DNA from: Psammoneis japonica
Lineage: Eukaryota
Length of the DNA stretch: 64,000 nt
Assembly (NCBI GenBank): GCA_008632985.1
Contig: QPGO01000119.1
Location: 124,001-188,000 of the forward strand
Reading direction: 5' to 3'
The notes beneath the pieces were generated by a model. That model did no database searches. It saw nothing but the letters and a program-made list of their open reading frames with translations, and was not told the origin of the DNA. Position numbers and translations under genes: made by a program. Below, piece after piece: positions 1-64,000 of the stretch; the stretch's first letter is position 1; every line of letters starts with the position of its first letter.

Positions 1-537
1 TCTCTTGCAGAGTATTTGGAGCTCATTGGCGAGAGTGTCCCCGAGCCGACTGATCCTCCGCAGGTTACTGAACCCCCGCAAGTGACGGATCCTCCTCAAG
101 TTACCGATCCTCCTCAAGTGACGGACCCCCCTCAAGTTACCGACCCTCCTCAACTTACTGATCCGCCGCAGACGACCGATCCTCCTCAAGTTACCGACCC
201 TCCTCAGGTTACTGATCCTCCTCAAGTTACTGATCCCCCTCAGGCGACCGATCCTCCTGAGACTACCGACCCCCCTCAGGCGACCGATCCTCCTGAGACT
301 ACCGACCCCCCCCAGGCGACTGATCCTCCTCAAGTGACCGATCCGCCTCAGGTAACTGATCCTCCTCAGGCAACTGACGCTCCCGAAGCTACAAATCCTC
401 CGCAAGCCACGGATCCTCCGGTTGTAGACAACGGCAACCCCTCCCAATCAGAAGAGCCTCTTGATGACTCTGGAGCCAGTCTTCGTGGGTCTGTTCTTTT
501 GTCTACATTCGTACTAGTCATGGCGACTCTTGTGTAA
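1..537 (+). CDS. 3' part (gene starts before the window) of a mucin-like surface protein with TDPPQV repeats and a hydrophobic C-terminus, probably GPI-anchored
   Basis: Frame is open from base 1 (SLAEYLELIG...). About 20 TDPPQ(V/A/T) units, then DDSGAS and a hydrophobic tail. Paralog of the gene at 2154-3276 (shared AEYLE.I, TDPP and DDSG.S motifs). Confidence 0.85.
   Translation, partial: SLAEYLELIGESVPEPTDPPQVTEPPQVTDPPQVTDPPQVTDPPQVTDPPQLTDPPQTTDPPQVTDPPQVTDPPQVTDPPQATDPPETTDPPQATDPPETTDPPQATDPPQVTDPPQVTDPPQATDAPEATNPPQATDPPVVDNGNPSQSEEPLDDSGASLRGSVLLSTFVLVMATLV
49..420 (+). repeat. 18-bp coding minisatellite (ACN GAY CCN CCN CAR GTN)
   Basis: Tandem units visible directly, e.g. gttaccgatcctcctcaa / gttactgatcctcctcaa. 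Confidence 0.95.
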
Positions 538-919: not shown

Positions 920-1960
920 ACTGCCAAACAGCCTGTGTGGAAAAGAGCTCTCAAACACTGAGCAGTCCACGTCTCCTGTGCTGCTCCAAATCTGATGATT
1001 GCAGCTGCTGCTGTGACTGGAAAAAATCCCATGCTGAGAATGTGACAACAGAAAACATCATTGGCAAAGGAACCACCACCAAATTGCAAAAGAGACAAAC
1101 ATTCATTCCACTGCTGGGGCACCACCATGCAAAGCACATGCAGTTGCTCTGTTTCCTTGATGGCCCTCGTTTTGTGTTGGACCCAGCACCCACTGTTGAA
1201 CAAAGTTGTGTTGAATCTGTTGTTGGGATTGAGGTGAGGATTGGGGGGAAGCTTCAGCCTTGTGGGTGGTGATGTGGCAAAAGGGGAGACACAGTTGGCT
1301 CCAACAAGGCTTTTGCTGTTGGCATGAGTGTTCTCCACTGCCGAGTTCTTGTTGGTGGAGCCGCCGTTGCCAGATGTGTTGAAAGGCAAACACGCTTGTG
1401 CAACCACCACACCAATGCTGCTCTGCTGCTGAGTGCAACCCCACACCCACAGGGGCTTGTTGTGACATCATTGAAAAATCCCCTTCGTGCACTCAAGCTT
1501 GGTGTGCGCAGCTGGCACTTTTTGGATGTCCGCTGCCTGGGCTTGGATGTGCAGCTTTTTCCTGCCAATGTTGCAGTGGCAAAACAAGCTCTGCTGGTGC
1601 TGCCTTTGGTGACATGACATGGTGATGAAAGATTTGAGTGAACAGTTTTTCACCCAGACATTGTGACACTCATCACAACTCTTTCGAGAGGTGCCGCGCA
1701 CCCTCGCCCAATGGCAAGTGTGTCTTTTCTTTTTGTGCTGAGCTTTCCGGTGGCTCCAGTTCTCAATCTTCCTGTGAACACATCTGAGTCTAGCTCCTGT
1801 CAATTTCTTCCTTCTTTCGCATTTCTTCTTCATTGTTTTTGGCAGCATTGCATCATTGAGCCTTCGGCGCATTCGAGAGCTGGAACTGGTCAATTGTTGG
1901 TTCTTCGTCCGAATGTCCGAATGCGATGTTCCCGTCCGCGGCAAAGATTCAAGCTGAATT
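920..1960 (-). pseudogene. Degenerate TpA/CpG-depleted segment; decayed gene or TE fragment of unknown type
   Basis: Essentially no TA between ~920 and ~1790. ORFs in all frames are rich in C/H/Q/W and lack Tyr. A long frame broken by stops runs on the minus strand (1944 to 850). No family recognised. Confidence 0.5.
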
Positions 1961-2153
1961 CATTATTTTTGTCACGAATGAATTGGAATCGCGGTTTTGT
2001 TCGGCTGGGTCGTGCCAAGCAAGAACGACACAAGCCATCGCGGATTTCATGAACACAAAAAGAACGAGAGCGACCACAACTACTAAAACTACCAATTGAG
2101 TTTATCATTTTGAATCTGCTCTCCCTACTTTATTTATCAAAGGAATCATCACA

Positions 2154-3276
2154 ATGAAAAAGGTTGTTCCATTCCTTTTCTTGCTCGCCGCGTCGACAAC
2201 AACAACAACTACAAAAGCTGTCGATTTGAGTGATATCTTTGGCATTAATTGTCTCGATACAAACGACGCAGACGAGCTATTTGCTTGTCTGGACCAAACC
2301 CTCAATGAATGGCTCGACAAAATGGGCGAAATGCTCAATTTGGATTGCTTGATGGAGGCCGGTCCTGACATGGACAAGCTCCGGGTCTGCGCCGAAGAAA
2401 CCGCCGTGAATCTCATGCAAACCTTGGGTGAAATTACCGGGATTGACTGTCTTGAAAATGGCGAGGACTTGCCCGCCATGGAAAAGTGTGCTAGAGAAGA
2501 ATTGAGAGAGTTGCGCCTTGCTTTGACACGACCGATACGGATGCGGTGATTGCATGTGCCAATGGAACCATTGACAACGTGTTTGGAATTATGGAGGAAG
2601 TGCCTCCCTGTGTCGAAGAATCCCTCGAGGCCATGGCGGCCTGTGCCAAGGAGAAAGCTGAGGAATGTGCCGAATCGTGTCAAGACCTTTCGTTTGCTCC
2701 TCTACAAGAATTGTCGTATACCGAAATGACGTGCTCGGCGCTTCAGTCGGGCATTTTGACTCCCATTTGTGCCGTAGCCTCGTGTTGCTCTCCATGTGTC
2801 AAGGCAATAGAAGATGTGGCCATGTGTATGACCAATAATGTTTTGAATCTGAATGAAGGTGACTGCAACTTGTTTTGCAGTGCTAATCGTCGTCTATTAG
2901 GCGATGGCTTCTTGCTCAAGAAGAAGAATCTGGGAAGTACTAGTGCCCTCAAGCGTGCCCTATCTGAAATAACGGATGAACCGGAGACACCCATTGTTCA
3001 TTGCGGAACCGATATTAAAGGAGAACGCCGTACGCTTGAAACGGTTGAAAACTTGTTGGATTGCTCCATGGCAGAGTACTTGGAGACGATTGAGCAGAAT
3101 GCGCCTCAAGTGACGGACGCGCCTGCGGCCACAGATCCACCAGCCGAGAACCCTCAAGCAACAAGTGCTCCCGCTTCTCCCGAAGGCAGTTCAACGCGTG
3201 ATGATTCTGGATCTAGTCGGGCTTCAGGTCCGCCTTGTTAGCAGTCGTCTTGGTCATAGCGGCTTCCTTTCTTTAG
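2154..3276 (+). CDS. Secreted Cys-rich, probably GPI-anchored surface protein; two apparent frameshifts (~2505, ~3228)
   Basis: Signal peptide MKKVVPFLFLLAAS and repeated C-x(8-10)-C helical units. ORF 2154-2549 continues in the frame of ORF 2546-3241 (VAPCFDTTDTDAVIAC). The hydrophobic tail SALLAVVLVIAASFL* is out of frame with that ORF and ends at 3276. Confidence 0.75.
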
Positions 3277-3632
3277 AATAATACAAAATTTGGGGTGGCC
3301 TTTGAAGACGCATACTAGATGATGTGATACAGTATGATTTTAAGAAGGTGTGTACTTATTTTCAGATTGAAATAGTTAGTGGTAGATCCATTTTCCGTGT
3401 CCGCAACTTAAATCGTCGAACAGCTTTTGCGCCGAAGTGACCAACTCTGTGCCCTCCATATAGCAAACTCGGCGTCCAAGCCAAACGTAAACACAAGACC
3501 TAACCGCACGGTCGGGCCAGTGACTGGACCAGCTCTGTGGAAACTGTGTGCTCCTGAAAAGAAAAACAACATACCAGGTTCGGTAGGGATGCTCCTCAGT
3601 GAAACTTTTTTTTTCTTGCTGAAAGCTGCGCG

Positions 3633-9977: not shown

Positions 9978-12566
9978 ATGAAATCGCTTGCGAAGGGAAT
10001 ACTTTTACTCCTTGCCTGTGCCTGTAGTCAAGCAAAAGGTATGAAAATTGTGAGATTCACCAAAACTGATTGCCAGCACAGTACAGAAATGTTCCACTAT
10101 TCTCATCTTCATCCTTCCGCAACATGCATCAGTAGATAGCGTGACTTCGTTATCGCAAACAAGTAAAGGAAATCGAACGTTAGTTGAAAGCCGAGGCGCC
10201 TGTTGCATGCCAAATAGCCGTAGATGCAAGTACACCAAAGCTTCAAGGTGTGAAAAGAAGTTTCGTGGAACGTTTATTGGGAATGGTGTCGGATGCGATC
10301 GAGGAACGTGCCCTCCGCCTACAGGTGCGTGTTGCATTGCCACCACAGAACAATGCATGAACAGAAGTAAGAAACGTTGTGAGAATGAAGGAGGTGTATT
10401 CAAGGGGAACGGAACACCATGTAGATCTGTCTCCTGCAGAGTGAGGAATCCAACACCCGAAAAAAGCCCACCCCGCCTAAGTAAAGGACCCGGTGCATGT
10501 TGCACCCAAGATGGACAATGCTATGAAACCAACAACGAAAAGACTTGTTTTAATAATGCTGGCTACTTCCAAGGGAACGGCAGCACATGTAAAGGCAACA
10601 GCTGCCCGGAAAAGCAGGATTATCAGCCAGTTCAACCACGAGTTTTCGTCCTCCAGAGTTTCGTTTCGCTTCTCTCCCCTTTGTCTGGAGAAGAAGTCTT
10701 GTTACAAACCGGAACACCACAGAATGATGCGCTAAATTGGTTGGTCTTTGAAGCTTTGTCAACCGCAGGAACAAGCGAGGACGAGGAAATTCCGGAGCGA
10801 TATGCTCTCGCCGTACTATTCTTTTCGACGCAAGGACAAGGCACGTTTTGGAACTCGTATCGCAACTTTCTCTCAGAAGAACATGTTTGTGATTGGGCTT
10901 ATGTGCACTGCAATGGTGGCACAATAAACAAAATCATAATCCGTAAGTGTTTTGAAATGCAATGTCTTGAGTCCGGAGATTGTTTGTCGGTTCTAACAAA
11001 GGTCATGCTTGGAAAAACATCCAACGTTCCACAGCGAACAACAATTTGCACGGCACACTCCCCAAAGAGCTCAGCATCATGTCAGACCTGAAGTCCATCG
11101 AGATGGAGTATAACTTCCTCACGGGCACTATTCCTCAAGCTTTCGGTAACCTCACAAAGCTGGTGCGGTTCGATGTCAGTTTCAACTCAATGACTGGGTC
11201 GCTTCCGCCATCCCTATTTCGAATTCAGAGTCTTAAGAAGTTGAGGCTTGACGGAAACATCTTTTCCGGGTCATTACCATCCACGTTTGGAAGGTCTATA
11301 CTCGTACTTACATGCAGCGATTGCTCGCTGAGTGGCAAGATACCAGAATCCATCGGAGACCTGAGTGGTTTGTTGCACCTTGATCTATCGTATAATCGTT
11401 TCACGGGTAAAATTCCTTCCTTTCTTCGAAGCACCAAATTGACAAAGCTGATTCTTAAAGGGAACATGCTGACAGGTTCAATCCCAAAATCTATCGCAAC
11501 CTTAACTTCCTTGGGCATTATTGACATTAGGGAGAATTTTCTTTCTGGTACGGTACCGCGATTCAGTGGCACAGAATTGCTTGAGGTCAGGGCGAACGAA
11601 AACAATCTGACAGGTTCCCTTGACGATTTTTTCGATTCGTCTTCGGAGACGATTACTTGGGTGCGTTTCGAGGATAACCAGCTATGGGGCTCTGTTCCTG
11701 AAACAATTGGCAACTTTATCCATTTGGAAGAATTGGATTTGTCTAGGAACAAGCTCGTGGGAACAATCCCGCCCTCTATTGGCAACCTTAGAAACATTTC
11801 GACATTGGATCTCCATGACAATTCTTTAAACGGCCCTTTAACTTCTGAAATTGGGAACTTGTTGGATCTGGAAGCGCTCGATGTCGGCAGAAACTTCTTG
11901 ACGGGTGTAATCCCTCCATCGGTTACGACCTTGCCCTTGTTAAGCGTCCTGTTGTTGGATGGAAATTTCTTGAATGGAGAGATTCCGTCTTTTGTTTCCA
12001 AGAAGCTAGAACGTGTCTGGCTTGGGGAAAATGAACTGGATGGGTCGCTTCCATCGGAACTTGGGCGAATGGATAATCTTCGAAGCCTTGATTTGTCAAA
12101 CAATTTGTTGACGGGGTCGGTTCCCTCGGAGCTTGGAGGACTGGAATCTCTTACCAGCTTTGATTTGTCAAACAATGCTCTCACTGGGTCATTCCCAGCT
12201 ACCACGTCCAATTTTCATTTTCTTGGTGGGTGCTTTCTGACAAGAGCGAGTCTTTCGGTGTTTCTTGTTTCTTCAACACTATATGAACTTACAACATATC
12301 CTTTTGTTTCGAATGTTTTCTCGATTCTCGTAGACGAGCTTTACCTTTATGGAAATGATTTTGAAAACGATTTTGGCGATACCTTTTGTGCGCGACCACA
12401 CAGGGACATTGATGTATTCTTCTCGAATTGTTTGGATGATGCAGTGGACTGCCCATGTTGTTCTCGCTGCTGCAATCGCTTCGGAGACGGGTGTAAAGAC
12501 AACCCCCCTTCTTCACCAACACCCGTGCCATCATACACACCTCATGGTGATGGATACTTTGATTGA
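9978..12566 (+). CDS. Secreted LRR protein with three N-terminal GACC Cys-rich repeats; introns 10039-10132, 10943-11034 and probably 12226-12333
   Basis: Exon 1 MKSLAKGILLLLACACSQAK (signal peptide) splices in phase to ORF 10141. Diatom-type LRR N-cap (PQNDALNWL..ERYALAVLFFST..W..VCDW..V.C), plant-like LxxLxLxxNxLxGxIP repeats, C-cap CPCCSRCC. Confidence 0.88.
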
Positions 12567-12699
12567 TAATAGCAAAGTTCAAAGACGTGTCCTTTTAACA
12601 AACGACTTCTCTCTAGCTACTAGAGAGTTTCCTTTTCGACTGATGTTCGACTGTTCGACGTCCCGCTTTTATCTTCGAGGTCTGTACGGTAGTCTGCAC

Positions 12700-13162
12700 C
12701 GGTGGGTCGTGCCATTTCATGCCGGATGCTGGATGCGGATATGCCGGGCAGATGCAATGCCGGGTGGAAAAAACACGAGGGTTCAACTTTTCACCTTCTC
12801 CCAATCCAAGTGTTCGCCAGCTTGGTTAACAAGCCCTACAGTGTCAGAGATGCATGGCTTTGAATGCCAAACTGTTGCATGGGAACGTCTCTAGATTCTC
12901 AGGATAGCACGGAAATTTTGTCACTCCATTTCAGACTCAAGGGAGGGCGACACTTGTCCATCACAAAGAGCAAGGCGAGCGCCTCAAACCTCAGTTCACA
13001 ATGAAAGAATCCAATGATGAAATCAGCAAATGCTGGTGGACATTGCTTGGTGAAGAGCATCATAAACCACACTCTGACAATGGTGACAAGAGTTGCAACA
13101 AACAACCCAAAAAGGCACAAAAAGCGGGGAGTGCCCCCAACGTTGTCTTGCACTGGGGTCCC
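12700..13162. other. Partly TpA/CpG-depleted degenerate sequence; left edge of the large decayed-TE block
   Basis: Few TA and excess TG/CA compared with the upstream LRR gene. No recognisable product. Confidence 0.45.
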
Positions 13163-13551
13163 GACGCGTTCCAGCCCTAGGTGGGACTCCGTGTGACATT
13201 GGGCCCGTAGAATTCTACGTGCGAGCTCCGTAGTACGAGAATTTAATTAATGTATATATTTATCTTCAACATCAAATAAACGGCCAAGTTTGTGGTACAA
13301 TTATGCCTCTTACCACTCGACGTTTTTGCAAATGCACCTGCCCTACGCGATTCTTAAGACATTATAGAATCGCGCTGTAACAAAAAATGTCAAAAGTTTT
13401 TGGACGGATCGCTCAATAAGTGTACCGTAAAATGACACAAAATGTAAAAAAATCACGTAGAATTCTACGTGCGCGACATACGACGAGATTAAAAAAACTA
13501 TCGATGTCACAGTTCAGTAGTACGAGGTCCCACCTAGACCTGGAACGCGTC
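13163..13551. mobile_element. Non-autonomous DNA transposon (MITE), 389 bp, 25-bp TIRs, 4-bp TSD TCCC
   Basis: Left end gacgcgttccagccctaggtgggac; right end gtcccacctagacctggaacgcgtc (reverse complement matches at 23/25). TCCC on both flanks (13159-13162, 13552-13555). Internal direct repeat cgtagaattctacgtgcg at ~13206 and ~13456. Confidence 0.9.
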
Positions 13552-13555
13552 TCCC

Positions 13556-14900
13556 CGCCGGTCCAACCAGACAAGCAGCCACCCATTGCACTGCCAAGAC
13601 AGCAACATTGGACCCCCACAATGGCAATCATCAAGAAGGGATGCTGGACTTCTTTGCTGCCATTGCAAGCAGTCAGTCCCGCTGCAACCCCGAGGCACTG
13701 TGCGCACGCCCAATGGGGCCACACCTCGGATCACAACATTTCAATGGCCATCGCAATGCACTGCAGAGCACAGGGCAAGCGGGAGACCCAGGATGCACTC
13801 AGGCAAGTCATTGGATTTCACTGCCCTGCTGCGGTGGTTGGAGACCCACAACCATGGGATGACAATCAGCAGTGTGGGCTGGTTGGCGAGATGCACCACC
13901 TTGCCCAGCACCAAATTGCGGCATTCCCAGACAAACAGATGAAGTCATGCAGCTCATGCCAGCAGGCACACACATGCTCCTGGGTGACAGCACCACTTTG
14001 GCCACCACACAAGCTGACCAGGAAAGTTCATTTGGCCACGTTGCCAGGGAGATCAAACAACGACATGTTCTGGAAACATTGCATTGCCTGCGGACATCCA
14101 GAATCAACCATGGTGCTTCCCCTTCTGCATCAAGGGCCAACACAACACAATTGCAGAAGCCACACTGACCACCACCATGGCAGCACTCAAGAAGAGTGCC
14201 GAGATGCATTCTTTGCTTGGGTGGAGGCCAGCTGGAAGACCAAATGGGTCTTCAGCAATGGCCCAAGTTTGGGGGCTGAGAACTGAGGCCATGATTGCCA
14301 GCTGTGTGAATGCAGCCACCCCCACCACCCCCACAGGCAGTGAGGTTTGTCAGTCAATGACCATCTCTCACCACACACATGGACAGGCTGCTCTCATTGC
14401 TTCAGCTCAGTCTGACAAATCAGGTGAGAGCATTTTGCATGATGCATCTGCACCATGTTGTCATGGCCTCAGCCATTTGTTGCATCTACATTGTCAACAA
14501 GATGACTGGGGTCCATTGGAGCAAGCACAACACCACCTGATCCAATGGATCCCAACCCAAAGGGTCACAAGCAAACACTGCTGTGGCGCACCTGCGGCCA
14601 TTGCTGGTGCACCACAGAATGCTGAGGAGCTTGACAATGGAGTCATGAGTGCCCCCCACAAGTCTGCTTGTGAGTTTGTTGATTTCCTGCATGAGGACAT
14701 GGCGGATCATGTTGATGAGGGATTTTGGGTGGCACAGTGCCCTGCTGCGGTCAAGACCATCCCTGGTTTGCACATCAGTCCTGTCAGGGTTGTCCTGCAA
14801 TGTGGCCACTGACCCAGACCAATGGTCCACTGCACTTTCCTTGGCACCAATGATGCCACGCAACCCAATGCAGCCATCAAGGCCATGCAATTTGGATGTG
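13556..14900 (+). mobile_element. Decayed tyrosine-recombinase (DIRS/Ngaro-like) retrotransposon, 5' part up to the start of RT
   Basis: PHKSACEFVDFLHEDMADHVDEGFWV..VKTIPGLHISPVRVVLQCGH*PRPMVHCTFLGTNDATQPNAAIKAMQFG matches, from recall, the diatom YR-element RT start (HKSA..FL.EEM.....GFW.VLPY..V..LPGLR.SP.GVVPQR.RRPR..VDY.F.GVN......EAMQFG) once Y->H/C and R->H/C/* changes are reversed. Confidence 0.8.
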
Positions 14901-17600
14901 TCAGCACCCCATTCTATGGATGACAGACAGACCTGGACAGATCTCTCCAAGACAAGACAGACAGATCTGCTTCTCTCATTCTTTCTCACCAGCGCACGTG
15001 TTGTCCACTGTTGCCAGTTTGCAGGGAGCTCTTTAGCTTGTTGCTTTTGCCATCGGCACTCTGTCAGGTCATGGCCTCATCAGGTTGCTTTTTCCTCTGC
15101 AGTGCAAGCCTCATCTTGATTTGCTCAGATTGTGAGCCAAACAAGCCTGCCACCATTTTTCCATCCCAAAGGTGAGATTTTTCATTGATGCGCAGGCATC
15201 ACACTGGAAAATCAGCACCAGGTTTCCACCATGCATGACCAATTTTTTGCACACTTGTGCACCATGATGGGTTGCAAGTTCAAAAAGAGCATTGTTGATG
15301 TGCTCAAAGTGATTGAGGTTGTTTTTCAGGAAAACCCTCATTTCCCTGATGACACAAAGTTCCTGAAGAAGATGACTTTTGCATGGTGACACAATTCTTG
15401 AACTTGAATCAGTTTTTGAAGACAACAAACACACCCAAGCCAAGGACGGTGTTCATGAGCTCACATGGGACCACATCCTTCACCAGTTCATCATGCCTCA
15501 CAAACAAGGGACCCCAAGGATGCAACAGCTGTTGCATCAATCTTCAGTCAAGCTCCTCTCATGGTGAAGACTTGATGTCCATGGTGGCAAATCTGTGTCT
15601 CCCCTCTCCCAACAGACACTTGAACAGAAGATCCAACTTGCTCTTCAAGAAGGCAATTGGGTGGTGTGCATTGTCATTGGTGCAGAGCATGTGCACTTCA
15701 ACTCCAATCTTCAGTGGCCCTGCACGGACTGGAACAAGTTCTGCTTGGCACCACAAACATCCAACTGAATGTTTTCATCTCCACCATCATTGGACAAAAC
15801 TCCCACATTGGTTTTAACATCCGATCCTGTCATGGTCTCATGCAAGGATGCATCAAGTCCTCCAAGGCCACACATGACACCTGGCGGGTGAAATGGAGAA
15901 CCCCTTGTGTCTTGCATGACCAAGGATGTGCTGTGCAGGACTGACCTGTCACTTGTGCCCCCTGCAGCAACAACAGCAAATCAGACATCAGCACATGTTG
16001 ATGATCTTGTTGTGATGTTGTGTGGTTCTTCCTTGGGGCCCAAATTGCCAACTGTGGCTGCCAACACATCTTCTGGAGGTCCTGCTGTGTCTGTTGAATC
16101 CATTGATTCTGATGTCACTTCCATTGCCAGGGACACTGGGAAAGTTCAAGCAGGTTGCTGTGTTCAGGTCCAAAAGAGCCTGATCGCCGCCATGCCAAGT
16201 TGCACCCCAACTCCATGGAGAGGGTGTTTTCCTTGATTGTCCCTCAGATGCCTTCAAGAACATTGCATGGCATGATCTTGAGATCCCTCAGGTCAAGATT
16301 GCCAGACCTGTGCATTTCGACAAGGACCTGTTCATCCTCCCTCATGTGAGGGATGGATGCGATCAGGGCACTTCCCGCCCTTCCAGTGACCATGATGGAG
16401 GATGCAAGAAAGCTGCTGTGTGCTTTCCACTGCATCTGTGACCCATCATTGACATCCTCATGGCTTCATGGCACATCCAAGTTGGGCCCAGTTGTTGTGT
16501 GTGCTGCTTGCAGCTCTTGCACCACTGTTGTGTCTCAAGTTTGCAGCGCACATTTGCTGTGGGTGCCATGATGGATCCCAGGAATGCTGTTTCAACAAAC
16601 ACCAAGTCTGCTGTGTCTGTTGTGAGGCCTGACAGCAGGCCATCTACAGCGATTGGTGGTGGCTCCCCAGCTGCGTTGTCCACTGATTTGGTGGAACTTC
16701 ACTTCGATGTCCAAGCCAGCTTTCTCTTGACCCCAAAGTTTTTTGGTTCTGGCAGCCCCACTGTCCCGTGCAATGGTGGTCACATTCATCTGTTGCACGG
16801 GCTGCACTGCATCACCAAGGTCACCCATGAGCTGCTTGCCACCTCTGTGATGCCATCATGTGGTGCTTGTGGATGCAGCCACAGCTCCTCTGTTGGCTGC
16901 CAACAAGTTGTTTCATCTTTGGATTTTTGGCTCAGCCGCCATCAACTCTTTTGGACACATGACACTGCCGCTCCTTCCATCATTTGAACAAGACCATTGA
17001 AAGCAGGGCGGGTGGCTGTCAAAGAGGGCCACCAAGTCTCACCACCTTCTGCTCTCCCACCTCTTTCCTCTGTTGTTGGGACCACTGGCTGTTGTGTCCA
17101 CTTGTGCTTTTTGTGGTGCTCTGGACCTGCCCGCCATCGCTGACAATGTGCAGTGTGCATGCAGACAAAAGGTTGTTTTTGTCACGCCCTTTGTGACATT
17201 TAAAGGCTGTGACACGTCGCCGTGATGCATTGGCTCTTGTTGGCAGCTGTGTGTTGCACTCCTCCCCATGTGTCACGCGTCCATGCGGCTCTTTACTAAC
17301 GTGCACTGACACTGCACGGTTTTGGCGGAACAGTGTGGGTGCGTGCGAAGGAACACACAGAACTGCACAGAGTTTTGCGTGTTCGACAGTGATCAACGTT
17401 GCTGCAGACAACTCCCACTCAGGGTTTCGAACCCCTGGCCTCCTGCCTGATGGTTGCGATGAACCACTCCGCTGTGAATTCACAGTGCAGTGTGCATGCA
17501 GACAAAAGGTTGTTTTTGTCATGCCCTTTGTGACATTTAAAGGCTGCAACACGTCGCCGTGATACATTGACTCTTGTCAGTGGCTGTGTGTTGCAAATGA
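14900..17600 (-). mobile_element. Unidentified decayed insertion nested in the YR element
   Basis: Interrupts the RT right after AMQFG, has the same TpA/CpG-depleted composition, shows broken protein-like frames on the minus strand and ends in a 111-bp direct repeat. Family not recognised; boundaries and strand approximate. Confidence 0.4.
17148..17595. repeat. 111-bp direct repeat, copies at 17148-17258 and 17485-17595
   Basis: gtgcagtgtgcatgcagacaaaaggttgtttttgtca...gctgtgtgttgca occurs twice with few substitutions. Confidence 0.95.
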
Positions 17601-17699
17601 CCCTTCATTTCCTGATCAGGGGAGGGAGCAATGTGACACAGAGGAAGCACACAAGATTGACAAGTGTGCCAAGTCTTCCAGTGGTGAGTTGTTGGGTGA

Positions 17700-19489
17700 C
17701 CAAGATTTGCACGTTGCTGAAAATTCACACCCACCAAACATTGCCCCATTTCCAACAATGAACAAGGCACTCCATGTTGCACCATGTTTGTCCAGTGAAC
17801 TTTCCAAGGATGCAGAGCAACGCAAATGCCGCGCTGCCTCTGACTGTTGCTGCGCCTCCTGGGGGGAATCTGGTTGCTCTGCACATCACCCCAGCAGGCT
17901 CCTGGGGCTTGTTTTCAGAACTCCAAGAGGCCCTCCACCACACCATGTCCAACTCACGGGTGCCGCATCTCACCACTGACATCCACACCATCTTAGATGA
18001 CTTCCGAGATTTGCACTCCACACTGGACAAGCCCCCCACACAAACTCCAGAGTTGGCGCCACTTGCACCTGCCATCCACAGCTGTCATGACACCACTGGA
18101 CATGGTGCAGGCAGAGTGTTGTCACCAACGCCAACCACCTGACCACATGCTGCCTGCTTGCAATGCAGCCCACATGCTCACAGCTGTTGACAAGATGACC
18201 TTGGCCCCAATTTGTGGCTTGTGCCTTTCCTGCAGGATGCTGCCAGTTTGTTTGCCACATGTGAACATCCCAGTGGCCCAATCCCCAGCACAGATCTGAG
18301 ACCAGTTGGATCCATCATCCAAGGTGTCACAGCTGCTCAATGTTTTGACATCCATGAGTGTGCTCACTTGCAACATGCAGACAACAGCTTGGGAACCTTG
18401 CATGTTGGCAACAAAAAAGTTTCTCTGCCACAATGAAACCCTGGTCCAAGCTCCAAGCTCCAAGCTCCTCTGCCATCAAGCCTGCCACCAGCATTGCCAT
18501 CACCAAGTTGGCCTTCATGACTGCACACACCTGGGCCCATCAACGCTGCAGCAGGCAATGCCTCCCATGTGCAATCACTCACCAACTCACAGCTCTTGTC
18601 ATGTTTCAGCACTGCTTGCCCAAAGAGCAAACTGTGGACCCCACCACCCATGCCATGTTCCTGCCTCTGATCTTGGCACTGTGCAGCACACCATTGCCAA
18701 TGCAGCTGCCCTTCAAGACCCACCACCAACAAACATTGGGGCTTGTTGACCAACTTCTTCTGGACACTGAATTGGCCATCAACCCACTGCTGCTCCAAGA
18801 ACACGATGACCCAGTCCTTTTCCTGCAAGTCTTCCTTGGCAATTTTTGCACAAGACAAATCACTCTCCACCACCACCATTGAGTCCATTGCTGCACTGCT
18901 GAAGAGATGCCCCGTGGTTGTTTGGCCATGTGCTTGCTTCAAAGGGGGCCATGGACCTGTGCCTTGCATTGCAAGGGAACATGGATTTCCGACCCATTGT
19001 TGCAAAAAAGAGGACCCACCACCAGGCCTGGTCAAACCAGTGCCAGTTGCCATCCTCCGCTGGTGGATTTTGTCAGCTGCCACAACCAGCCCACACCCAG
19101 GCACCTCAGCCACCATGGACATGATTGCTTTGACACACTTTTTCCTCACCCACCCTGGCAAATGTGCTGCCATGCCATCCAACACCACCTGACCTTCAGC
19201 ATTGTGCTGGCAGCACACATCTGCATCTTTTTGCCACTCCAGATGCCCAACTTGATGCCTCCACCTTTGCCACTCTGACACTTGCCACCCAGAAGGAGAG
19301 TGGCATCTGTGGTGAGGTCATTGGTTTGGGCTCAGGCCACCCCTGACTTTGTCCAGCTGAAGCTTGTCTCTGCCAGATCCCGGGTGAAGCACAGGTGCAC
19401 CCATGGTGCACTTCTTCCTGATGCACATCTTTCACCCCATTTCTCTGCAGAATGATGGTGCCATGTTGCCCCCACAGATGTCATGTCCA
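17700..19489 (+). mobile_element. Decayed DIRS/Ngaro-like retrotransposon, 3' part: RT end/RNase H and tyrosine recombinase
   Basis: AGSWGLFSELQEAL..DIHTILDDFRDL..PELAPLAP..HDTTGHGAGRV resembles the RNase H start DASG.GAGGV. EDPPPGLVKPVPVAIL..MDMIALTHFFLTHPGKC and STFATLTLATQKESGICGEVIGLG..LCP resemble YR motifs FFFLLRPGEY and TF.TQKNG.RGE.I. Confidence 0.8.
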
Positions 19490-21860
19490 GACACATTTCA
19501 GCCCTCTCTGTCCAGAGGTGGGTGGGTGGGACTGCGTGGTGTGACACTGGGCCCACAGAATTCCACGCGCAAGCTCCACAGCAAAGTGTGAGGCCATGAA
19601 CACATGAATGACCACCAACAGAATCCAAGCCTGCGGGGAGCATTGACCACTTGTCCTTTTTTTTGGAAAAATTCTGGAGAGAAGTGCAAAAAACATGCCA
19701 GAACGTGTGCCACTGCTGGCACGGAGTGGGTCAGGCCCTGCACACATTTTGCACCACAGTGGTGCAAGCCACTTTTGTGAAGGCTCCTGCGCATGCAAAT
19801 TGGTGTGAGCTCCACACAAAAGCCTTGGAAATTGGAGTTCTTGTGGTGCACAATCTCAGCATGCAGTGGCAAAGAACTGACAAAAATTGCTCCCCAGGTG
19901 TTGTGCCAAAATCACTGCCTTGAAACAACCATGCTGCTGCACACAGTGGAGCATGCAACACTGGTCTGTCAATGCTGCCGTTGCATTGCCACAAGCTGCA
20001 AGTCATTGTTTCACCATGGCGGAACCCCCGGATGACACAAGCTTGTTGTCAGGTGTTGACAAACACACTCATTGTGTGGTGTGTTGGTCAGACTGGTTTT
20101 GTTGGAATGGTGGCCACTGTGTCACCATCATTGAATGAGGCATCTCCAGCACAAAGCAACAATGTCACTCCATCTGCTGTGACCACTCCCTTTGCAGCTT
20201 TTGCCAATGTGAGACCCAGCATCAACAACATCACCCCGGCTGCACTTGCTCCTGCTGCTGCTCCCATGGTGGGAGACTTTTGTCATCCTCAATCCTCAAC
20301 AAGTGTGGAGCTGCAAGCTGGGAAAGGCTGATGTGTGCCGGCATGCCAAAACACAAACCTTCTGGAAACAAGAAAGCTTTTTGATGAGGTTGCCAGCAAA
20401 GAGTTTCTGATGCATGGAATGTTCAACATGGCCAAAAAGATGACTTTTTCTGGTGATTTGGTTGGACTTGGCGGTGAGAATCTCACAGCAGTTTGGAGCT
20501 CTTTTAAAAAAACAGTTCCACACACCTGTCGCAGAGAATTTGTCAATTTTTAGAAAGTCCCCATGAAGTCTCTAATGTCCTTGATGATGACCATCCTTCA
20601 AATTTGCATTGATGTGAATTGAACGGCCCAGGCTGCACTGTTCCAAAAATGATGGGGGCACACTTTCAAATGGCACAACCAAGAACCCCCACCAACCAAC
20701 TGACCCCCAGAGACACAAAAAAGTCTGTGATCACCAACCCTGACAAACTCTTTCAAATTTTAAGCACATCATTTTCAGTTTGCCTGCACATTTTTTTCGG
20801 ACATTGACCCTTCAACCACCATGGAGCAAATCTCCACAGGTGGAGATTTGCTTGATTTGAGGAATTGTGATGTGTCATGCATTTGTGTGATGACACAATG
20901 AACATGGCACAAAAATGTTGCACCATGTGCAATCTGCACAAAACACACCACAGGCATTTGCTCATTGCAGACAGAGATTGGCTCCAAGGGTTTTGCATTT
21001 GGTGCTACATTGTGACAGTGACTCATCACAAATTTCATTGTCAGAGGTTGAGATTTGGCTCTTCTCCATTCACAGATGAAGTGTGCAAAAAACCCAGTGT
21101 CAAAAGTCAACATTGAACTTTTCAAATTGCAAAAATGGTCCCCCAGAGCTTTTTGGCAAATGTGTGTTCAAAAACAAAATTGTGCAATTTGTTCACCAGC
21201 CATGTCTGAGAACAACACATTCAATGCATTTGTGACGCAAGCGAGCGCCCACCTCTCCTGCCCTCTGGAGGCTCGGCCATCTGGCTTTGGGATTTGGAAG
21301 AGGTGCGCTGCAGTGCCAGCAAAGCCATCTCCACTCCAAGCAAGTTTTGGTCCTGTGTCATCACCAGTTTTTGAATCTGGAGGCACCACTCACAGCAGAC
21401 AACAGATGCAACTTTCCAGGAAATGCCGACAATTGGCATTTGACTGGCTGTGGGAATGTCTGCAGTTGTTGCACCAAACATCATGCATGGTCACAACTGT
21501 CTCACACGCACTCTGTGGTGTCTTGCAAATGGACAAACTTTGAGCTGCCACTGAATGCATGCATTTTTCATTGCGACACATCCGGGCTTGTTGCACGAAA
21601 ATCAGGAGCTCCCGCATGAAATCGACCGCCAGCCGACCATCCATGTCACACGATTGTCAACTCAACAATGATCAGCCCCATTTGCACAGAACAGATCAAA
21701 TTCAAGCCTCTTTAGAGCTGATTCCTGAATGCCAAAAATGTTCAAAACACCACCTTGACAGCTCACTTCAGGGCGGCAAGAATCAAAACATGCTCCTCTG
21801 ACTGTCCATCACCTCACACAAACGAGCACTTTTTGTTTTGGGTGCAATTTGAATCTCTGA
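19490..21860 (+). mobile_element. Hypermutated longer relative of the 13163 MITE (left end recognisable), followed by decayed coding-like sequence
   Basis: 19490 gacacatttcagccct..ggtgggac..gtgtgacactgggcccacagaattccacgcgcaagctccacagca aligns to 13163-13235. No right TIR found, so the end coordinate is only the start of the next recognisable segment. Confidence 0.55.
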
Positions 21861-21871
21861 AGTCTGAGATT

Positions 21872-22100
21872 CTTCAGAATCCATCTTGGCAGCAGTCAGC
21901 TTGGTCACAGCAGCTTCCTTTCTTTGGAACAATGCAAAAATTGGGGCAGCCTTTGAAGATGCACGTTGGATGTGACACGTCGTGATTTTGAGAAAGTGTG
22001 TGCACTGCTCATTTTCAGATTGAAACAGTCAGTGGTAGATCCATTTTGCATGTCTGCTGCTTAAATCGTTGAACAGATTTTGCGCCCAAGTGACCAACTC
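21872..22100 (+). pseudogene. Hypermutated duplicate of 3222-3447 (3' end and downstream region of the Cys-rich GPI gene)
   Basis: Collinear match, e.g. cttggtca(t/c)agc(g/a)gcttcctttcttt(a/g)gaa(t/c)aat(a/g)caaaa and ...gtgaccaactc. Confidence 0.9.
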
Positions 22101-22160
22101 ATCATTCTTTGCTTTTGTCGTGTCCAACAAATGTGGCTCACCCGCACTGCAGGATCATTA

Positions 22161-22481
22161 CTACGAATTGCTGAACAATTGCGCGATACACGTGCCCGAA
22201 GGGTGATTGTTGCTTCGGGCACGAAATTCGAGCTTCGCGCACGTAGAGACCGTAGAAAATAATATACCAGCATTCGAGAATGTCCGATTTGTGTAGATCA
22301 CGTAGCACAGTACCACAGAGGTCATTGATGAAATTACTTCAACGACTCATGCGACTACAATTAGATTTTCAATACCATATGCTATGTAGAAAGGACATCT
22401 GCGCGAAGGAAGAATGTTGCTTCGGGCAACGATATTCGAGCTTCGGGCACGTGTATCGCGCAATTGTTTTGCAATTTGTAG
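22161..22481. mobile_element. Tc1/mariner-type MITE, 321 bp, 41-bp TIRs (CTAC...GTAG), TA TSD
   Basis: ta|ctacgaattgctgaacaattgcgcgatacacgtgcccgaag ... cttcgggcacgtgtatcgcgcaattgttttgcaatttgtag|ta, with 3 mismatches between TIRs. Subterminal repeat tgttgcttcgggca..attcgagcttcg near both ends. Confidence 0.92.
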
Positions 22482-22806
22482 TACTTTGTGCTCTCCACAA
22501 CGACTCTGATCGACTCGTTCGATTCGATCTCATTCGTGCAAGCGTCAAATTTCATGAAGTCTCTCTCTAGAGCTAGAGTAGCTGGAGAGCACAAATTGAA
22601 AACATGGTGCAGTGCATCCTCATCCGGCAAGGAACGGCAAAAAAGCATCTACTGTACGAAATGGGAACTATGTATTAAAATCTTAAATGCATGTGCAAAC
22701 AACATGAAATCGGGTGAGTCAAAAACAACAACAACAACATCTCAACAGCCATCCATCATCTTTAATCTCTGGGATGCTTGCTCTTTTTTGCCGGAGGCTT
22801 GGCGTC

Positions 22807-24582
22807 TTAAAAAGTGTAGTAAGGCTTGTAAACGACAATGTCGTTACTCTCGTCTTGGGCTCTGGCCAATACCTCTTGGTTGCATTGAACAAAGGGAGAC
22901 AAGGTTGGCTTCATCCAGCACTCGACATCTTCAAGTCCCAACTCGTTCATGCGACGGAGCCATAAGAAACGCTTGTTGAGCGTGCCTTGGCCCGCGCCCA
23001 CATATTCAGGAGGAAGGGCACCAATTTCAATCAAGAGCGTTTCGTGCTCTTCGTCGTCTTGAAGCGTCGCATCCTTGGAAGCATACCAGTGCTTGCCCTG
23101 TAGTCCAAAGTTGGAGTCTCGTACTTGAAACAACGAGTTGGCTCTGTCAAGGACCAAACCGTGAATGACAATTCCGCGAAGGACGGGTTGAAAGCTCAAC
23201 ATGTCATTTTGGGTAACACTCTGTGCCATTTTGTTTCCCTTCCAACAATTGCACACGTGGTAGACAAGTGCCAAGGCGGTCCTTCGATCTTCGTTGAGTT
23301 CTTCGGCCCACGTTTCGCCATTTTTAAGTGCTCGGGCCCACGCCTCGGCTCGTTTCTCGCGAGACGCAAGACGCTCCGTCCATGAACAAGAAGTATAGCC
23401 TTGTGGTTCACCCTTTGTGACATATTTTTGAAGGTTGGTGACGCACTTTTGAAAGGACGGATCGCGATAGATAATCTCCTGAAACTCGGTCATTCTGGAG
23501 TAGGTCTTGATTTTCATTCTCAACTCTTGATGCTTTTCGAGTGGAATCTCGGCAAATTCGTCGGCACTGTTACTGCTATTGGAGTTGGTTTCTGCACGAG
23601 CAGTAGGGTGCAACTCGTTTTCAACATTGTTCTTGGACAAGAGCTGAGAATGAAAATCGGGAACAGTGTTGGAAACGAGTTGTCCAAGAACAACGTTGGA
23701 AACGAGTTGCACCGCGTCGACGATTTTGTCACACGAATGCGAATCCTGGTGGAGCTGGTTTTCCTCGTCTTGTTGCATGGGCGGTGTATCGTGTAGGCGA
23801 AAACAATTGATGAATTTATCAATCTCCTGGCGAGACTGGTTCTTCAAGAGAGCTTCGACAATCTTATCCCAGTCATTTGGATCTGTGGCCTTGGCGTATC
23901 TAAACGAAACAGGTTGCGTCGACTTGGCCCGAGGACCTGTCACGTGGGTCTTGTCCGGGACAAGTCCCACCGTATTCGCAAACATTAGTTCGCATACACA
24001 CCACAGTCGGCCATACACATCAGTTTTCGCGTTACGAAGAACAACATACTCAGACGCTTCCTTCAGAGCCTTTACAAACGGCGCTTGTTCCAAAGGGACA
24101 TCAAGCAGGTGTTTTATCGATTCCTTGTCTCCTTGCATGATTGCAAAAGAACAGATCCAAAGGTTGGGCCTCTTTGCCTTCGTCCCAAACACTGCCACAA
24201 TCGAACGAACAAAACTTGCAAAGGGCTCGGCCCAAGCGTGGGTGATGAAAGCGTCAATCTTGAGTCCATTAGGATTGTGGACCAAGGCGTATGATCGCTT
24301 CGTACGTTGACATAACGGCGCGATCATTTCATCAACAATGTCATACATGGTTTTGCTTTCGTAGTCGTCGTTTGCAAATTTGGTGGCCGCCTTCCTCTCA
24401 AATTCCATTAGCTCATCGTACGAAATCGCCCACAATGTTGGGTCCTTCTCAGCACTCTCTGTTAGTGGGCCAAAGGTGATTCCCTCTGATAGACCCTCCG
24501 CGTCAGCAGCCTGCGGATGTTCAGTTTCTGCAGCACGAGCCCTATGGTGCATGCCGTTTCCAACCTTGTTCTTGACTGACAT
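22807..24582 (-). CDS. Protein with an N-terminal HET/TIR-like domain and an uncharacterised C-terminal domain
   Basis: Motifs DAFITHAWAEPF, LWICSFAIMQ and GRLWCVCEL resemble the SH/Y.W, LW.D..CI.Q and R.W...E signature of HET-like domains. Stops 15 codons earlier than its paralog (GAA->TAA). Confidence 0.75.
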   Translation of the reverse strand: MSVKNKVGNGMHHRARAAETEHPQAADAEGLSEGITFGPLTESAEKDPTLWAISYDELMEFERKAATKFANDDYESKTMYDIVDEMIAPLCQRTKRSYALVHNPNGLKIDAFITHAWAEPFASFVRSIVAVFGTKAKRPNLWICSFAIMQGDKESIKHLLDVPLEQAPFVKALKEASEYVVLRNAKTDVYGRLWCVCELMFANTVGLVPDKTHVTGPRAKSTQPVSFRYAKATDPNDWDKIVEALLKNQSRQEIDKFINCFRLHDTPPMQQDEENQLHQDSHSCDKIVDAVQLVSNVVLGQLVSNTVPDFHSQLLSKNNVENELHPTARAETNSNSSNSADEFAEIPLEKHQELRMKIKTYSRMTEFQEIIYRDPSFQKCVTNLQKYVTKGEPQGYTSCSWTERLASREKRAEAWARALKNGETWAEELNEDRRTALALVYHVCNCWKGNKMAQSVTQNDMLSFQPVLRGIVIHGLVLDRANSLFQVRDSNFGLQGKHWYASKDATLQDDEEHETLLIEIGALPPEYVGAGQGTLNKRFLWLRRMNELGLEDVECWMKPTLSPFVQCNQEVLARAQDESNDIVVYKPYYTF

Positions 24583-25195
24583 GACGAAAGCACGGCACAA
24601 GGCGAGGGGAACTCTCTCTAGAAGCAGAGACTAGTTCTAGGGTAGAGTAGGAATAGAATAAGTAGCTTTCTCCAGCTCTCTTTTATGATGTCGGAAAGCT
24701 GGGAAGCGACTCAATCTGTCAAATCAATTGGATTTCGCGCGGTAAATTGTAGCGCGGGGGCCGATTGGATCTGCCTCTTGCACGTCGCCTTTGAAGACGC
24801 ACACTCTCTAGAGTAGATGTGATATTCAGATTAACTAGACTCTACTAGAGAGAGCGAGTGGTAGATCCGTTTTCCTTATCTGCTACTGTAGCTCCAACTC
24901 TATTTGAAATTTTTGTGCTCTCCACAGACTCTGGTCGATTCGTTCGATTCGTTCGATTCGTCTCATTCGTGCAACGAGTGTGTCATGACAACTCTACTAC
25001 ACTACAAGCATCCCCTCAAGCACAAATTGAAAACATGGTGCAGTGCATCCTCATCCGGCAAGGAACAGCAAAAACGTCTACTGTACGAAATGGGAAGTGT
25101 GTGTTAAAATCTTAAATGCATGTGCAAACAACAACATGTAATTGGGTGATAGCAAAAAAGAACCATCTCAGCAGCATGTTCAACATCCATCATCT

Positions 25196-26155
25196 TTAAT
25201 CTCTGGGATGCTTGCTCTTTTTTGCCGGAGGCTTGGCGTCTTCCAAAGTGCAGTGAGGCTTGTAAACGACAATGTCGTTACTCTCGTCTTGGGCCCTGGC
25301 CAATACCTCTTGGTTGTATTGAATAAGCGGAGACAAGGTTGGCTTCATCCAGCACTCGACATCCTCAAGTCCCAACTCGTTCATGCGACGGAGCCACAAG
25401 AAACGCTTGTTGAGCGTGCCTTGGCCTGCTCCCGCATATTCAGGAGGAAGGGCGCCAATTTGAATCAAGAGCGTTTCGTGCTCTTCGTCGTCTTGAAGCG
25501 TCGCATCCTTGGAAGCATACCAGTGCTTGCCCTGCAGTCCAAAGTTGGAGTCTCGTACTTGAAACAACGAGTTGGCTCGGTCAAGGACCAAACCGTGAAT
25601 GACAATTCCACGAAGGACGGGTTGAAAGCTCAACATGTCATTATGAGAAACACTCTGTGCCATTTTGTTTCCCTTCCAACAGTTGCACACGTGGTACACA
25701 AGTGCCAAGACGGTCCTTCGATCTTCATTGAGTTTTTCGGCCCACGTTTCGCCATTTTTAAGTGCACGGGCCCACGCTTCGGCTCGTTTCTCGCGAGACA
25801 CGAGACGCTCCGTCCATGAACAAGAAGTATAGTCTTGTGGTTCACCCTTTGTGACATATTTTTGAAGGTTGGAGAGGCACTTTTGAAAGGACGGATCGCG
25901 ATAGATAATCTCCTGAAACTCGGTCATTTTGGAGCAGGTCTTGATTTTCATTCTCAACTCTTGATGCTTTTCGAGTGAAATCTCGGCGAATTCGTCGTCT
26001 GCACTGCTGCTTGCAGCGATGGATCCTGGAGTTTCATCCGGATGCTGCTGTTGTTCGGTTTCTGTACGAGCAGATGGGAAATCGTTTCCAACAAGAGAGC
26101 AGGGATAGTTCTTGATTCCAATGTTGTGTGGCGGCGGCAAGTGATCCGCTGTCAT
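25196..26155 (-). CDS. Tandem paralog of the preceding gene lacking the HET/TIR-like domain
   Basis: Near-identical from ADEFAEI.LEKHQELRMKIK to the end. Shares start-codon context (cacggcacaaggcga), upstream region and downstream region. Confidence 0.75.
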   Translation of the reverse strand: MTADHLPPPHNIGIKNYPCSLVGNDFPSARTETEQQQHPDETPGSIAASSSADDEFAEISLEKHQELRMKIKTCSKMTEFQEIIYRDPSFQKCLSNLQKYVTKGEPQDYTSCSWTERLVSREKRAEAWARALKNGETWAEKLNEDRRTVLALVYHVCNCWKGNKMAQSVSHNDMLSFQPVLRGIVIHGLVLDRANSLFQVRDSNFGLQGKHWYASKDATLQDDEEHETLLIQIGALPPEYAGAGQGTLNKRFLWLRRMNELGLEDVECWMKPTLSPLIQYNQEVLARAQDESNDIVVYKPHCTLEDAKPPAKKSKHPRD

Positions 26156-41105: not shown

Positions 41106-41389
41106 AGTGAAGAAAGAAGGTCTGGCTGTGTTGCCTTTGTGCCGTCTGTGCGATGTGTGGTCATTATTTGTGTCCGTCAGTGGCTCGACGGCCGGGCGGT
41201 CATTACCACCACCGCGTCATTGAAGTGATTGAGACTCTCCGAACTTTTGACAAATACGAGAATCATTTTTTTGCGGATCAAACGGACTTTCTGACTCTTT
41301 GTTGCTGTTGTCGATCTCCTGGGAGCACTTTATCAGAGCTACCATAATACTTTATGATTGAAGCAAGGAGATGTTCGAGAGTTCCGACC

Positions 41390-62209: not shown

Positions 62210-62960
62210 ACCGGACCGCAAGGGGCCCGCCTTCAGAAAATGTCATGAGAGATGCCACACATCGACATGGACAATCATCTCCCGGCTCCACCACCTCTGG
62301 ACAGCACTTTACCAGCATTTTCAGGTCTTGGAGCATCTTGGCATCGTCAATGCATCGCCTGCAAGCAACATCCAGAGGGTGCAGACCTGCCCCATTTCTT
62401 TTGTTGAGCGCGGCCGGTCCGGCCTTTGCAAATGCTTTGACAACTTCAGATGGCAGACACTTCCCAAGAGCACAGTGAATGGGAAAATCACGTCATTGAA
62501 GGAAACGATGGTTTTGTGTGGGAGTCACAAGGTCCTGTTGAAAACGGCGGGTCAGCATTCGAAGAACATGGGGAGATGGACATGCAAGACCCTCATGGCA
62601 TTCCAAGTGCACATGCAAAGGACTCTGACACCATGCTCCATTGGTCATGCAAGGCATCCTTTTGGCAAGAAAGAGAATGATGTCAGTGCTGCAGTCATGA
62701 ACGATTGCTGTGTGCAACGGAAGGCATTGTTCAAATCGAACTGTCAGACTGGCCACTCGACGGAAATGCTTTGTTGCTTCAGGACAAATTCGAGCCAAAG
62801 ACTGGACTCTCTCCAGAGAAGCTTCATCATCTTTGTTCAGCTCTTCATGGAGTGCATCAGACATTTGCTGCAGGTCTTCTGGACGACGGTTTTGCATCGA
62901 CACTGCCATGGTGAAGGCTGTGATGAATGCAAAAAATTTGAGCATGTTTTGAATGCGGAC
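62210..62960 (-). pseudogene. Hypermutated ankyrin-like (LPLH-repeat) pseudogene
   Basis: SLERVQSLARICPEA..CLPLHTAIVHDCSTDIILFLAKRMP..SPLHVHL and, after a frameshift, AALNKRNGAGLHPLDVAC..LKMLVKCCPE. TpA essentially absent. Confidence 0.55.
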
Positions 62961-64000
62961 AGACTGTGGAGCGACGATGAAAAAGCAGAGCAGAGACCTT
63001 TGAAAGCAACTGGTGATCAAGTCTCGTGCCGACAAGAGCAACAAGAAATGACAAGCTGGTGGAGAGCAATGCTTCACACAACAGAGTGTTTCTAGATGTT
63101 GCAAGAGAAGCAGAGCTGGTCTCTGCTGCACTTCAAACTGCGACAGCAAAAGCACCACCACAGCAAGCCCATCAGCACCAGCCAAAAGATGTTGTGTCGT
63201 CCATCAGAAGACAGAGTTTCAGCCACGAGTGATGCAGAGAAATCAGCCACACAAGATGGGAAGAGCAGATCTCCAGTCATGAGATTGCATTTGAAAAAGG
63301 CGTTGGGCATCTCCTGCCATGGAGAGAGACAGAGAAGAGAGACAGGTGGCTGCAGCTTCATTTTGTGTGCTCTCCCCCAGCTCTCTCAACTGCTGTCTGT
63401 CTCTGGCGCAAGGGAGAGAGAAGTGCTCAAATGCAGCACTTCTTTTTGACAGCAGCTCCATCAAAGAAATGAAGTGCAACAATTTGGCAATTTTGCACAA
63501 AAGAAAGTTCTCTGGGTTCCTGCAGCAAACAAAAGACCAGTGCAAATTGAGCCCCCTGAGTGCAGCCCAAATTCACACTCCTTTTTTTTTAGAGAATTCT
63601 CACAGAACATCAGCTCAACCCAGAGTGCAGTGCACACAATGCACAGTGTCATCATCAGCTGCACCAGTGACATGATGACAAAGGCACTCACTTGTGCTCA
63701 GCTGGGGCTGCAAAGAACCTTTGTGTTTTGAGCACTTTGCACCAGGAGGCTGTCAGTGTGCAACTCTCAGCAGACAAGCATGGTCCTGGAGGGGTTGGGC
63801 TGTGGTTGGTGGAAAAGTCATGGACAGCGATGCTCACCAGCTGAGACTGGAGTTGGTGGATGGACTTTTGAGTTCTTGCAGACAGCTGGTTGCACCTCAA
63901 TGTGCTTTGGGAATGATGCACACACCAAACAATGGGGCCCCTTTGTCATGTTGTGGGGTTGGTGGCAGGCTGCTGGCGCACATGTGCTGCAGCAGAGGCG
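62960..64000. other. TpA/CpG-depleted degenerate sequence continuing beyond the window
   Basis: Only two TA seen by eye (tctaga ~63093, tttaga ~63590), very few CG, saturated in TG/CA. Confidence 0.75.

Follow-up and report, generated by a model that had tools for sequence, protein, structure and literature searches.

The 389-bp element at positions 13163 to 13551 of the 64,000-nucleotide window (the whole stretch of DNA that was analyzed) is probably one copy of a very abundant, noncoding cut-and-paste transposon (MITE), and this copy appears to have inserted after the block around it had been stripped by a TpA-to-TpG/CpA hypermutation accompanied by a slower decay of CpG. The copy would keep its TA and CG steps between stripped flanks because its insertion followed the stripping. 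The conversions are present in older family members, which indicates that the family is not immune to the process.

Anatomy and noncoding nature of the element

The sequence-only reading had described an element of 389 bp with 25-bp inverted ends (TIRs) and a TCCC target duplication (TSD). Both the coordinates and the anatomy proved to be right (Table 1), the two TIRs agreeing at 23 of their 25 positions. The presence of TCCC on both sides amounts to four matching letters, or a 1-in-256 event by chance, and was read in a single copy. When the TIR was searched for as a degenerate pattern, with any pyrimidine-purine step allowed at the places of TA and CG, the window gave two matches, both of them the ends of the element itself, whereas 100 shuffles gave none. 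Neither of the two TIR mismatches was variable among the family copies at a level of at least 10%, and the left-hand version of the TIR is also present in the fragment at 19490. The subterminal palindrome, searched for in its YR-degenerate form, gave three matches in the window versus 0.06 expected, and further subterminal words of the element are repeated as well.

No ORF is confined to the element, and all ORFs of at least 60 amino acids that touch it extend into the flank. A search of positions 12900 to 13800 against Rfam at E values of up to 1 gave no matches. Shortness, the absence of coding capacity, TIRs, a TSD, and a very high copy number are traits that the element has in common with MITEs such as Stowaway and Tourist.

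Table 1. Positions of the element, its parts, and related features in the window
Feature	Position	Strand	Remarks
Probable MITE	13163..13551	+	389-bp noncoding TIR element; 32 TA, 28 CG
Left TSD copy, TCCC	13159..13162	.	Identical to 13552-13555; one copy only
Right TSD copy, TCCC	13552..13555	.	Read directly
Left TIR, 25 bp	13163..13187	+	23/25 versus reverse complement of right end
Right TIR, 25 bp	13527..13551	-	24/25 match to the TIR of metagenome contig L001
Left subterminal 14-bp palindrome	13206..13219	.	CG and TA steps around GAATTC
Right subterminal palindrome	13456..13469	.	Exact second copy of 13206-13219
TA-erased, CG-poor host block	12906..22030	.	From dinucleotide profiles; borders approximate
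Duplicate inside the block, first copy	17148..17258	+	Partner 17485-17595, 92% identical
Old converted 5' fragment, same or sister family	19490..19583	+	Aligns to element positions 1-73
Converted repeat copy	21872..22100	+	Unconverted copy 3222-3447, 79% identical

A relative of the ends was found in a metagenome contig (L001), which has the TIR at 24 of 25 positions, carries the palindrome as well (about 190 bp further in), and is otherwise unlike the element. The match (positions 1 to 218, minus strand) lies in an AT-rich contig with an unrelated interior, and the contig ends inside the element. Since only the TIR and the palindrome are shared, these two are predicted to be the conserved working parts; both are composed of those same steps that conversion destroys. 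Searches with the degenerate TIR found nothing in the window beyond the element, one truncated match among the metagenome contigs (that in L001), and none among the viral and prokaryote genome contigs; no autonomous partner came to light in these collections.

Four-base-pair TSDs are made by Sola, Ginger1, Chapaev, and Academ transposons. The length of the TSD seen here fits Sola, being a length that several superfamilies share. Neither Tc1/mariner (TA as the TSD) nor PIF/Harbinger (3 bp) fits a 4-bp TSD together with GAC ends. The rule applied in Repbase assigns an element to a superfamily when its first 11 terminal letters match those of a classified element (PMC4455052).

TA and CG content of the element and its host block

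The element had been described from its sequence as full of TA and CG, and this was borne out by the o/e values of 1.0 for its 32 TA steps and 1.61 for its 28 CG steps, both of which exceed the values of the gene-rich background of the window (0.58 and 0.99, respectively). In the right flank (700 bp; 13556-14255), no TA was present versus 27.9 expected from the gene-rich background (P = 8e-13), and 16 CG were present versus 39.0 expected. The left flank (253 bp; 12906-13158) contained 1 TA versus 10.1 expected (P = 5e-4) and 6 CG versus 14.1 expected. The sharp borders that had been reported against depleted flanks thus hold for TA, but not for CG, whose depletion in the vicinity of the element is only partial. 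Similarly, the element does lie inside the mutated block, as had been stated, but not deep inside it, the left edge being only about 100 to 257 bp away.

For positions 13556 to 22030 of the block, the o/e values were 0.03 for TA, 0.22 for CG, 1.83 for CA, and 1.95 for TG, compared to 0.58, 0.99, 1.16, and 1.13, respectively, in the background; the G+C content was 0.51 in the block and 0.48 in the background. The stripped zone begins 12 bp past the TAG stop codon of the ORF at 12334-12894, and the element begins 269 bp past the same stop codon. Two further stripped blocks are present in the window, at approximately 1000-2000 and 62300-64000, with CG o/e values of 0.45 and 0.32, respectively. 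The three blocks are sharply bordered regions with a TA o/e of 0.03 versus 0.53 to 0.58 elsewhere in the window.

Little could be recognized in the block itself. None of the 93 block ORFs scanned reached the Pfam cutoff, and no viral or transposon protein domain was found among them; a single ORF gave a subthreshold zinc-binding match (20.6 bits versus a cutoff of 27). The longest ORF of the block (317 amino acids) had no relatives at E values of up to 0.001. The contents that were identified are two repeat fragments, at 19490-19583 and 21872-22100.

Other features of the window were also noted. An island within the block, at 17130-17600, retains many CG steps (14 per 250 bp) and 5 TA steps and includes both members of the 111-bp duplicate pair listed in Table 1. 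At the right border of the block, positions 22159 to 22483 hold a second intact TA- and CG-rich element, which has inverted ends of about 43 bp (93% alike) and seemingly TA on both sides (Tc1/mariner-like). Just to the right of the block, a 1.1-kb direct duplication (22485-23569 and 24912-26006) has 90% identity. Two neighboring WD40/beta-propeller ORFs (38709-40728 and 41369-43264) have a DNA likeness of 68%. The window opens with a tandem array (39-420) whose diverged units are 72 to 75% alike. The domains encoded by the ORFs of the window include IBR, WD40, LRR, and FG-GAP and point to a eukaryote.

Converted copies within the window

The left end of the element had been reported to recur in converted form at 19490-19583. 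All three of the conversions quoted in that report were recovered, but the match is limited to the initial 73 bp of the element, in an alignment that is interrupted by extra stretches of 18 bp and 3 bp. Nonsignificance of this similarity had been set beforehand as grounds for giving up the relationship; the core of the match had a blastn E value of 1e-6, and a transition-tolerant local alignment scored 83 versus a maximum of 41 in 20 shuffles. For the right part of the element, nothing comparable was found around 19490 (scores of 21 to 30, the null level), and the window thus contains one full copy and this one fragment. Since nothing beyond position 73 matches, the sequence at 19490 is either a fragment or part of a sister family that shares the end.

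Between the element and this fragment there are 14 differences, of which 13 are transitions and 10 fall on TA or CG (P = 0.002). All five TA sites and five of six CG sites are converted, nine to CA and one to TG, and the palindrome is still recognizable in converted form at 19554. With 10 of 11 aligned TA and CG sites converted, the earlier proposal that one family exists in two states is upheld within the window. The fragment is also CG depleted, unlike most of the family, which indicates that it is much older. The excess of CA among its conversions (9 of 10) has a P value of 0.02. Strand-coordinated patches were considered for the block as a whole and rejected, a runs test on its 1,997 CA/TG steps having given a z value of +0.38 with no strand clustering.

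Two further pairs of sequences allowed converted and unconverted states to be compared. The duplicated segments at 17148-17258 and 17485-17595, both inside the block, differ at three sites where one has TG and the other CA, at one site with TA versus TG, and at one site with CG versus TG. These differences are best explained by independent conversion of ancestral TA or CG steps after the duplication. The occurrence of TG and CA at the same sites of the duplicates points to conversion in place, after insertion or duplication. The second pair consists of a repeat at 3222-3447, which lies outside any block and has 19 TA and 11 CG steps, and its copy at 21872-22100, inside the block, in which 2 TA and 6 CG steps are left; transitions account for 39 of the 60 differences between the two.

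These pairs also bear on whether the TA- and CG-free block is mutated DNA at all or is instead DNA of a natively odd composition or a sequencing artifact. There is no ancestor of the whole block with which to compare it and no protein homology, which would be compatible with a native or artifactual origin. On the other hand, in three independent pairs, one copy has TA or CG where the other has CA or TG. Furthermore, the flanks recur in contigs built from a public run, which differ at 0 of 463 and 1 of 449 flank bases, an agreement that would not be independent if, as is possible, the run holds the same data as the assembly. We therefore regard a native or artifactual origin as scarcely credible. 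The base at 13868 is G in the public-run contig and A in the window (full depth, 61.4), which may reflect an error of the assembly or data sets that differ.

Copy number and variation across the family

Contigs of one public sample were aligned to positions 12700 to 14000 of the window (1,301 bases) at 80% likeness. In the main run (X1), 2,846 records fell on this region; only 2 of them overran its ends, and nearly all lay on the element alone. Summed word depth, which is not a copy number, was 4.8e4 to 5.6e5 in bins of the element versus 58 to 113 in the flanks. The same sample includes three further runs, all very small, and in these the covered bins (9 of 30) were all on the element. Twenty-nine contigs had unlike sequence before 13163 (agreement, 0.36), and these unlike flanks fix the left border of the element at 13163. 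Likeness to the window copy was at least 99% for 425 records, 95 to 99% for 808, 90 to 95% for 1,101, and below 90% for 512; the MITE family thus comprises copies of many ages.

A place was counted as variable when at least 10% of the depth had another letter, and 33 such rows were listed within the element. Of these, 24 were A>G or T>C, and 23 of the 24 fell on a TA of the window copy, compared to a chance expectation of 64/224 A/T letters (P = 5e-12), so that the two states of the family are also seen genome-wide in one sample. In all, 20 of the 32 TA sites of the element vary among copies, with shares of 12 to 80%. At 13255-13258 and 13296-13297, the TA, CA, and TG forms all occur; since CA and TG forms are found at one and the same TA site, conversion must have taken place independently in different copies. 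Together with the TG-versus-CA duplicate pair inside the block, these three-state sites support the earlier proposal that depletion is acquired after insertion. In contrast to TA, none of the 28 CG sites varied at the level of at least 10%, and no C>T or G>A change was listed. TA loss and CG loss are therefore not one step, since no family CG varies whereas the block and the fragment at 19490 have lost most of theirs.

The copy in the window is not a fresh image of the majority of the family, and this was counted against the late-insertion reading. At 13253, 13399, 13463, and 13491, between 88 and 99.9% of the family depth has a letter unlike that of the window copy, and at 13500 and 13522, G accounts for 75 to 80% of the family depth. 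The copy itself may have undergone a TA>TG change at 13444 and a CG>CA change at 13336.

The rare letters are also relevant to the possibility that the copy was converted along with its surroundings and was then restored by ectopic gene conversion from an intact copy. Donors would be plentiful in a family of high copy number, and templated repair would stop at the limits of homology, that is, at the ends of the TIRs. However, the copy has letters that are rare in the family, with the A at 13491 at a depth of 121 (approximately twice single copy) and the T at 13253 at a depth of 648, and a common donor is not expected to supply such letters. In addition, a single tract would need to bring back all 32 TA and 28 CG steps. 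Restoration by gene conversion is thus very unlikely, and insertion into stripped DNA remains our preferred reading.

No contig joining 13162 to 13552, as expected of an empty site, was listed in the one sample. The two records that overran the aligned region are the flank contigs; they continue across the junctions unbroken but end 27 and 25 letters inside the element, short of the 31-letter bar for bridging. They therefore hint no more than weakly at an insertion that is supported by reads and not heterozygous.

Order of insertion and conversion

Because both flanks are stripped, the family is convertible, and the copy is intact to its ends, insertion after conversion is the simplest order of events. 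A different order would apply if the copy predated the conversion and had been shielded from it, either by open chromatin at the 3' end of a gene or by bound proteins. The location of the element, 269 bp past the stop codon of the ORF at 12334-12894 and 100 to 257 bp inside the block edge, is in keeping with such shielding. However, the intervening 253 bp, from ORF to element, are stripped too (1 TA versus 10.1 expected), so that a shield would need to begin and end exactly at the TIRs, and the family as such is open to conversion (20 of 32 TA sites vary among copies). We consider shielding improbable. A shifted block border beside the ORF, 100 to 257 bp away, could also spare the element. With respect to timing, the sequence-only reading offered two options, arrival after a wave or a copy that is still too young, and these frame the question correctly.

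In the history that we propose, a transposase encoded elsewhere would recognize the inverted ends of 25 bp and, in all probability, the subterminal palindrome too, and transposition would generate the 4-bp target duplication. A region-confined process would turn TpA into TpG or CpA (A-to-G on either strand), with a slower parallel loss of CpG to TpG or CpA, and the copy at 13163-13551 would have landed in DNA that was already stripped, an order that is deduced from the state of the copy and its flanks. Three stages would then be represented: intact (13163-13551); TA lost and CG kept (much of the family); and both lost (the fragment at 19490 and the block). The enzyme would be an adenine deaminase acting on DNA. 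The loss of CG lags behind that of TA at the block edges, in the blocks at approximately 1000-2000 and 62300-64000, and in the family, where none was seen, and we infer that it is a separate, slower process, probably methylcytosine decay. Conversion is predicted to disable the element by destroying the binding motifs that are built of TA and CG.

Sequence context of the converted adenines

The 32 TA steps of the element offer 64 adenines, one per strand, of which 34 are followed by a pyrimidine and 30 by a purine. Common A>G changes in the family affected 21 of the 34 adenines before a pyrimidine versus 2 of the 30 before a purine (odds ratio = 22.6; Fisher P = 4e-6), so that 21 of the 23 converted adenines precede a pyrimidine. 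The two converted adenines before a purine had the lowest shares (12% and 14%). In the stripped DNA of the window (1000-2000, 12906-13158, 13556-22030, and 62300-64000), 23 TA steps survive, and 21 of these are preceded by a pyrimidine. The form pyrimidine-TA-purine accounts for 14 of the 23 survivors versus 19.7% in the background (P = 2e-5). Since this form puts a purine after the A on both strands, its excess among the survivors indicates a refractory context.

A T-A-pyrimidine rule predicts that purine-TA-purine goes to CA, and the matching tetranucleotide class is present at 26.3 per kb versus 19.5 per kb for its mirror class, a small excess that hinges on the ancestral composition of saturated DNA. 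Where an intact partner shows the direction of the change (aligned pairs, read by eye), five sites fit T-A-pyrimidine and two do not. The T-A-pyrimidine context is that of the edited base in the tRNA anticodon loop, as in the substrates of TadA and ADAT2.

A tentative extension of these observations, which we find conceivable but on the whole doubtful, is that TA is erased by a TadA/ADAT2-type deaminase acting on DNA adenines, which targets T-A-pyrimidine, disarms motifs, and works in bouts that spare later insertions, so that MITE copies could serve as its clock. Under this bout reading, a silent block would be stripped to completion and the process would then stop, and noncoding transposons would be disarmed via their binding motifs and not via broken genes. 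Candidate deaminases could be put to a concrete biochemical test by asking whether they favor an A that precedes a pyrimidine. Moreover, an abundant and still intact MITE family would supply thousands of dated probes for the rate and the bouts of the process, and copies inside versus outside blocks can reveal both the marks of the target and the sequence context of the enzyme.

Comparison with known systems

Repeat-induced point mutation (RIP), as it occurs in Neurospora and other ascomycetes (RIPCAL, PMC2621366) resembles the process considered here in that transitions in a dinucleotide context ruin repeats and mobile DNA. It also leaves blocks of skewed composition next to untouched genes. 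RIP differs, however, in that its C-to-T changes, mostly at CpA, create TpA and enrich the DNA in AT, whereas the window has lost TpA and its G+C content has risen. RIP was rejected as a candidate on these grounds, TA having been lost, CA and TG gained, and the G+C content being 0.51 versus 0.48 in the background. Deamination of 5-methylcytosine in methylated transposons converts CG to TG or CA in silent repeats. Such decay fits the slower CG loss in the window but leaves the TA loss unexplained.

In the literature on diatom MITEs and on TpA loss in diatom transposons, no prior report was found, and the sole published parallel that we found is a preprint on Bigelowiella natans (Mettrop et al., bioRxiv, 10.64898/2026.01.13.699255). 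According to the accessible text of that preprint, integrated giant-virus and virophage DNA that is silent in B. natans undergoes A:T>G:C hypermutation on TpA only. The process was active in 11 of 15 mutation accumulation lines, with a regional rate of approximately 6e-7 per site per generation, all of it on TA (3.3% of the steps), and an adenine deaminase of the ADAT2/TadA kind was proposed (10.64898/2026.01.13.699255). By our own arithmetic, 32 TA sites would at that rate take their first conversion within a few thousand generations. As regards the neighbor preference, the words trinucleotide, context, and downstream have no occurrences in the accessible text of the preprint, and no neighbor beyond the T is mentioned there.

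B. natans and the window are alike in the change itself, A:T>G:C on TpA to give TpG or CpA, and in its confinement to regions with normal DNA alongside, these regions being silent in B. natans. The activity in only some of the B. natans lines, moreover, fits a process that comes in bouts. The two cases differ in extent, with a TA o/e of 0.03 in the window blocks, which is near saturation, versus 0.45 in the viral region of B. natans, and in CG, which is also lost in the window blocks (o/e = 0.22) whereas the accessible text of the B. natans preprint is without CpG. They differ as well in the target, which is viral DNA in B. natans, whereas transposon fragments and no recognizable viral protein domain (93 ORFs) are seen in the window, the hosts being unrelated eukaryotes, and in the kind of evidence, which is comparative for the window and comes from mutation accumulation lines for B. 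natans. As a defense against mobile DNA, the targeted editing of A to G in genomic DNA has one report to date (2026), on that unrelated alga; with the window, the signature would extend to a second lineage of eukaryotes, in which it is saturated and accompanied by a loss of CpG.
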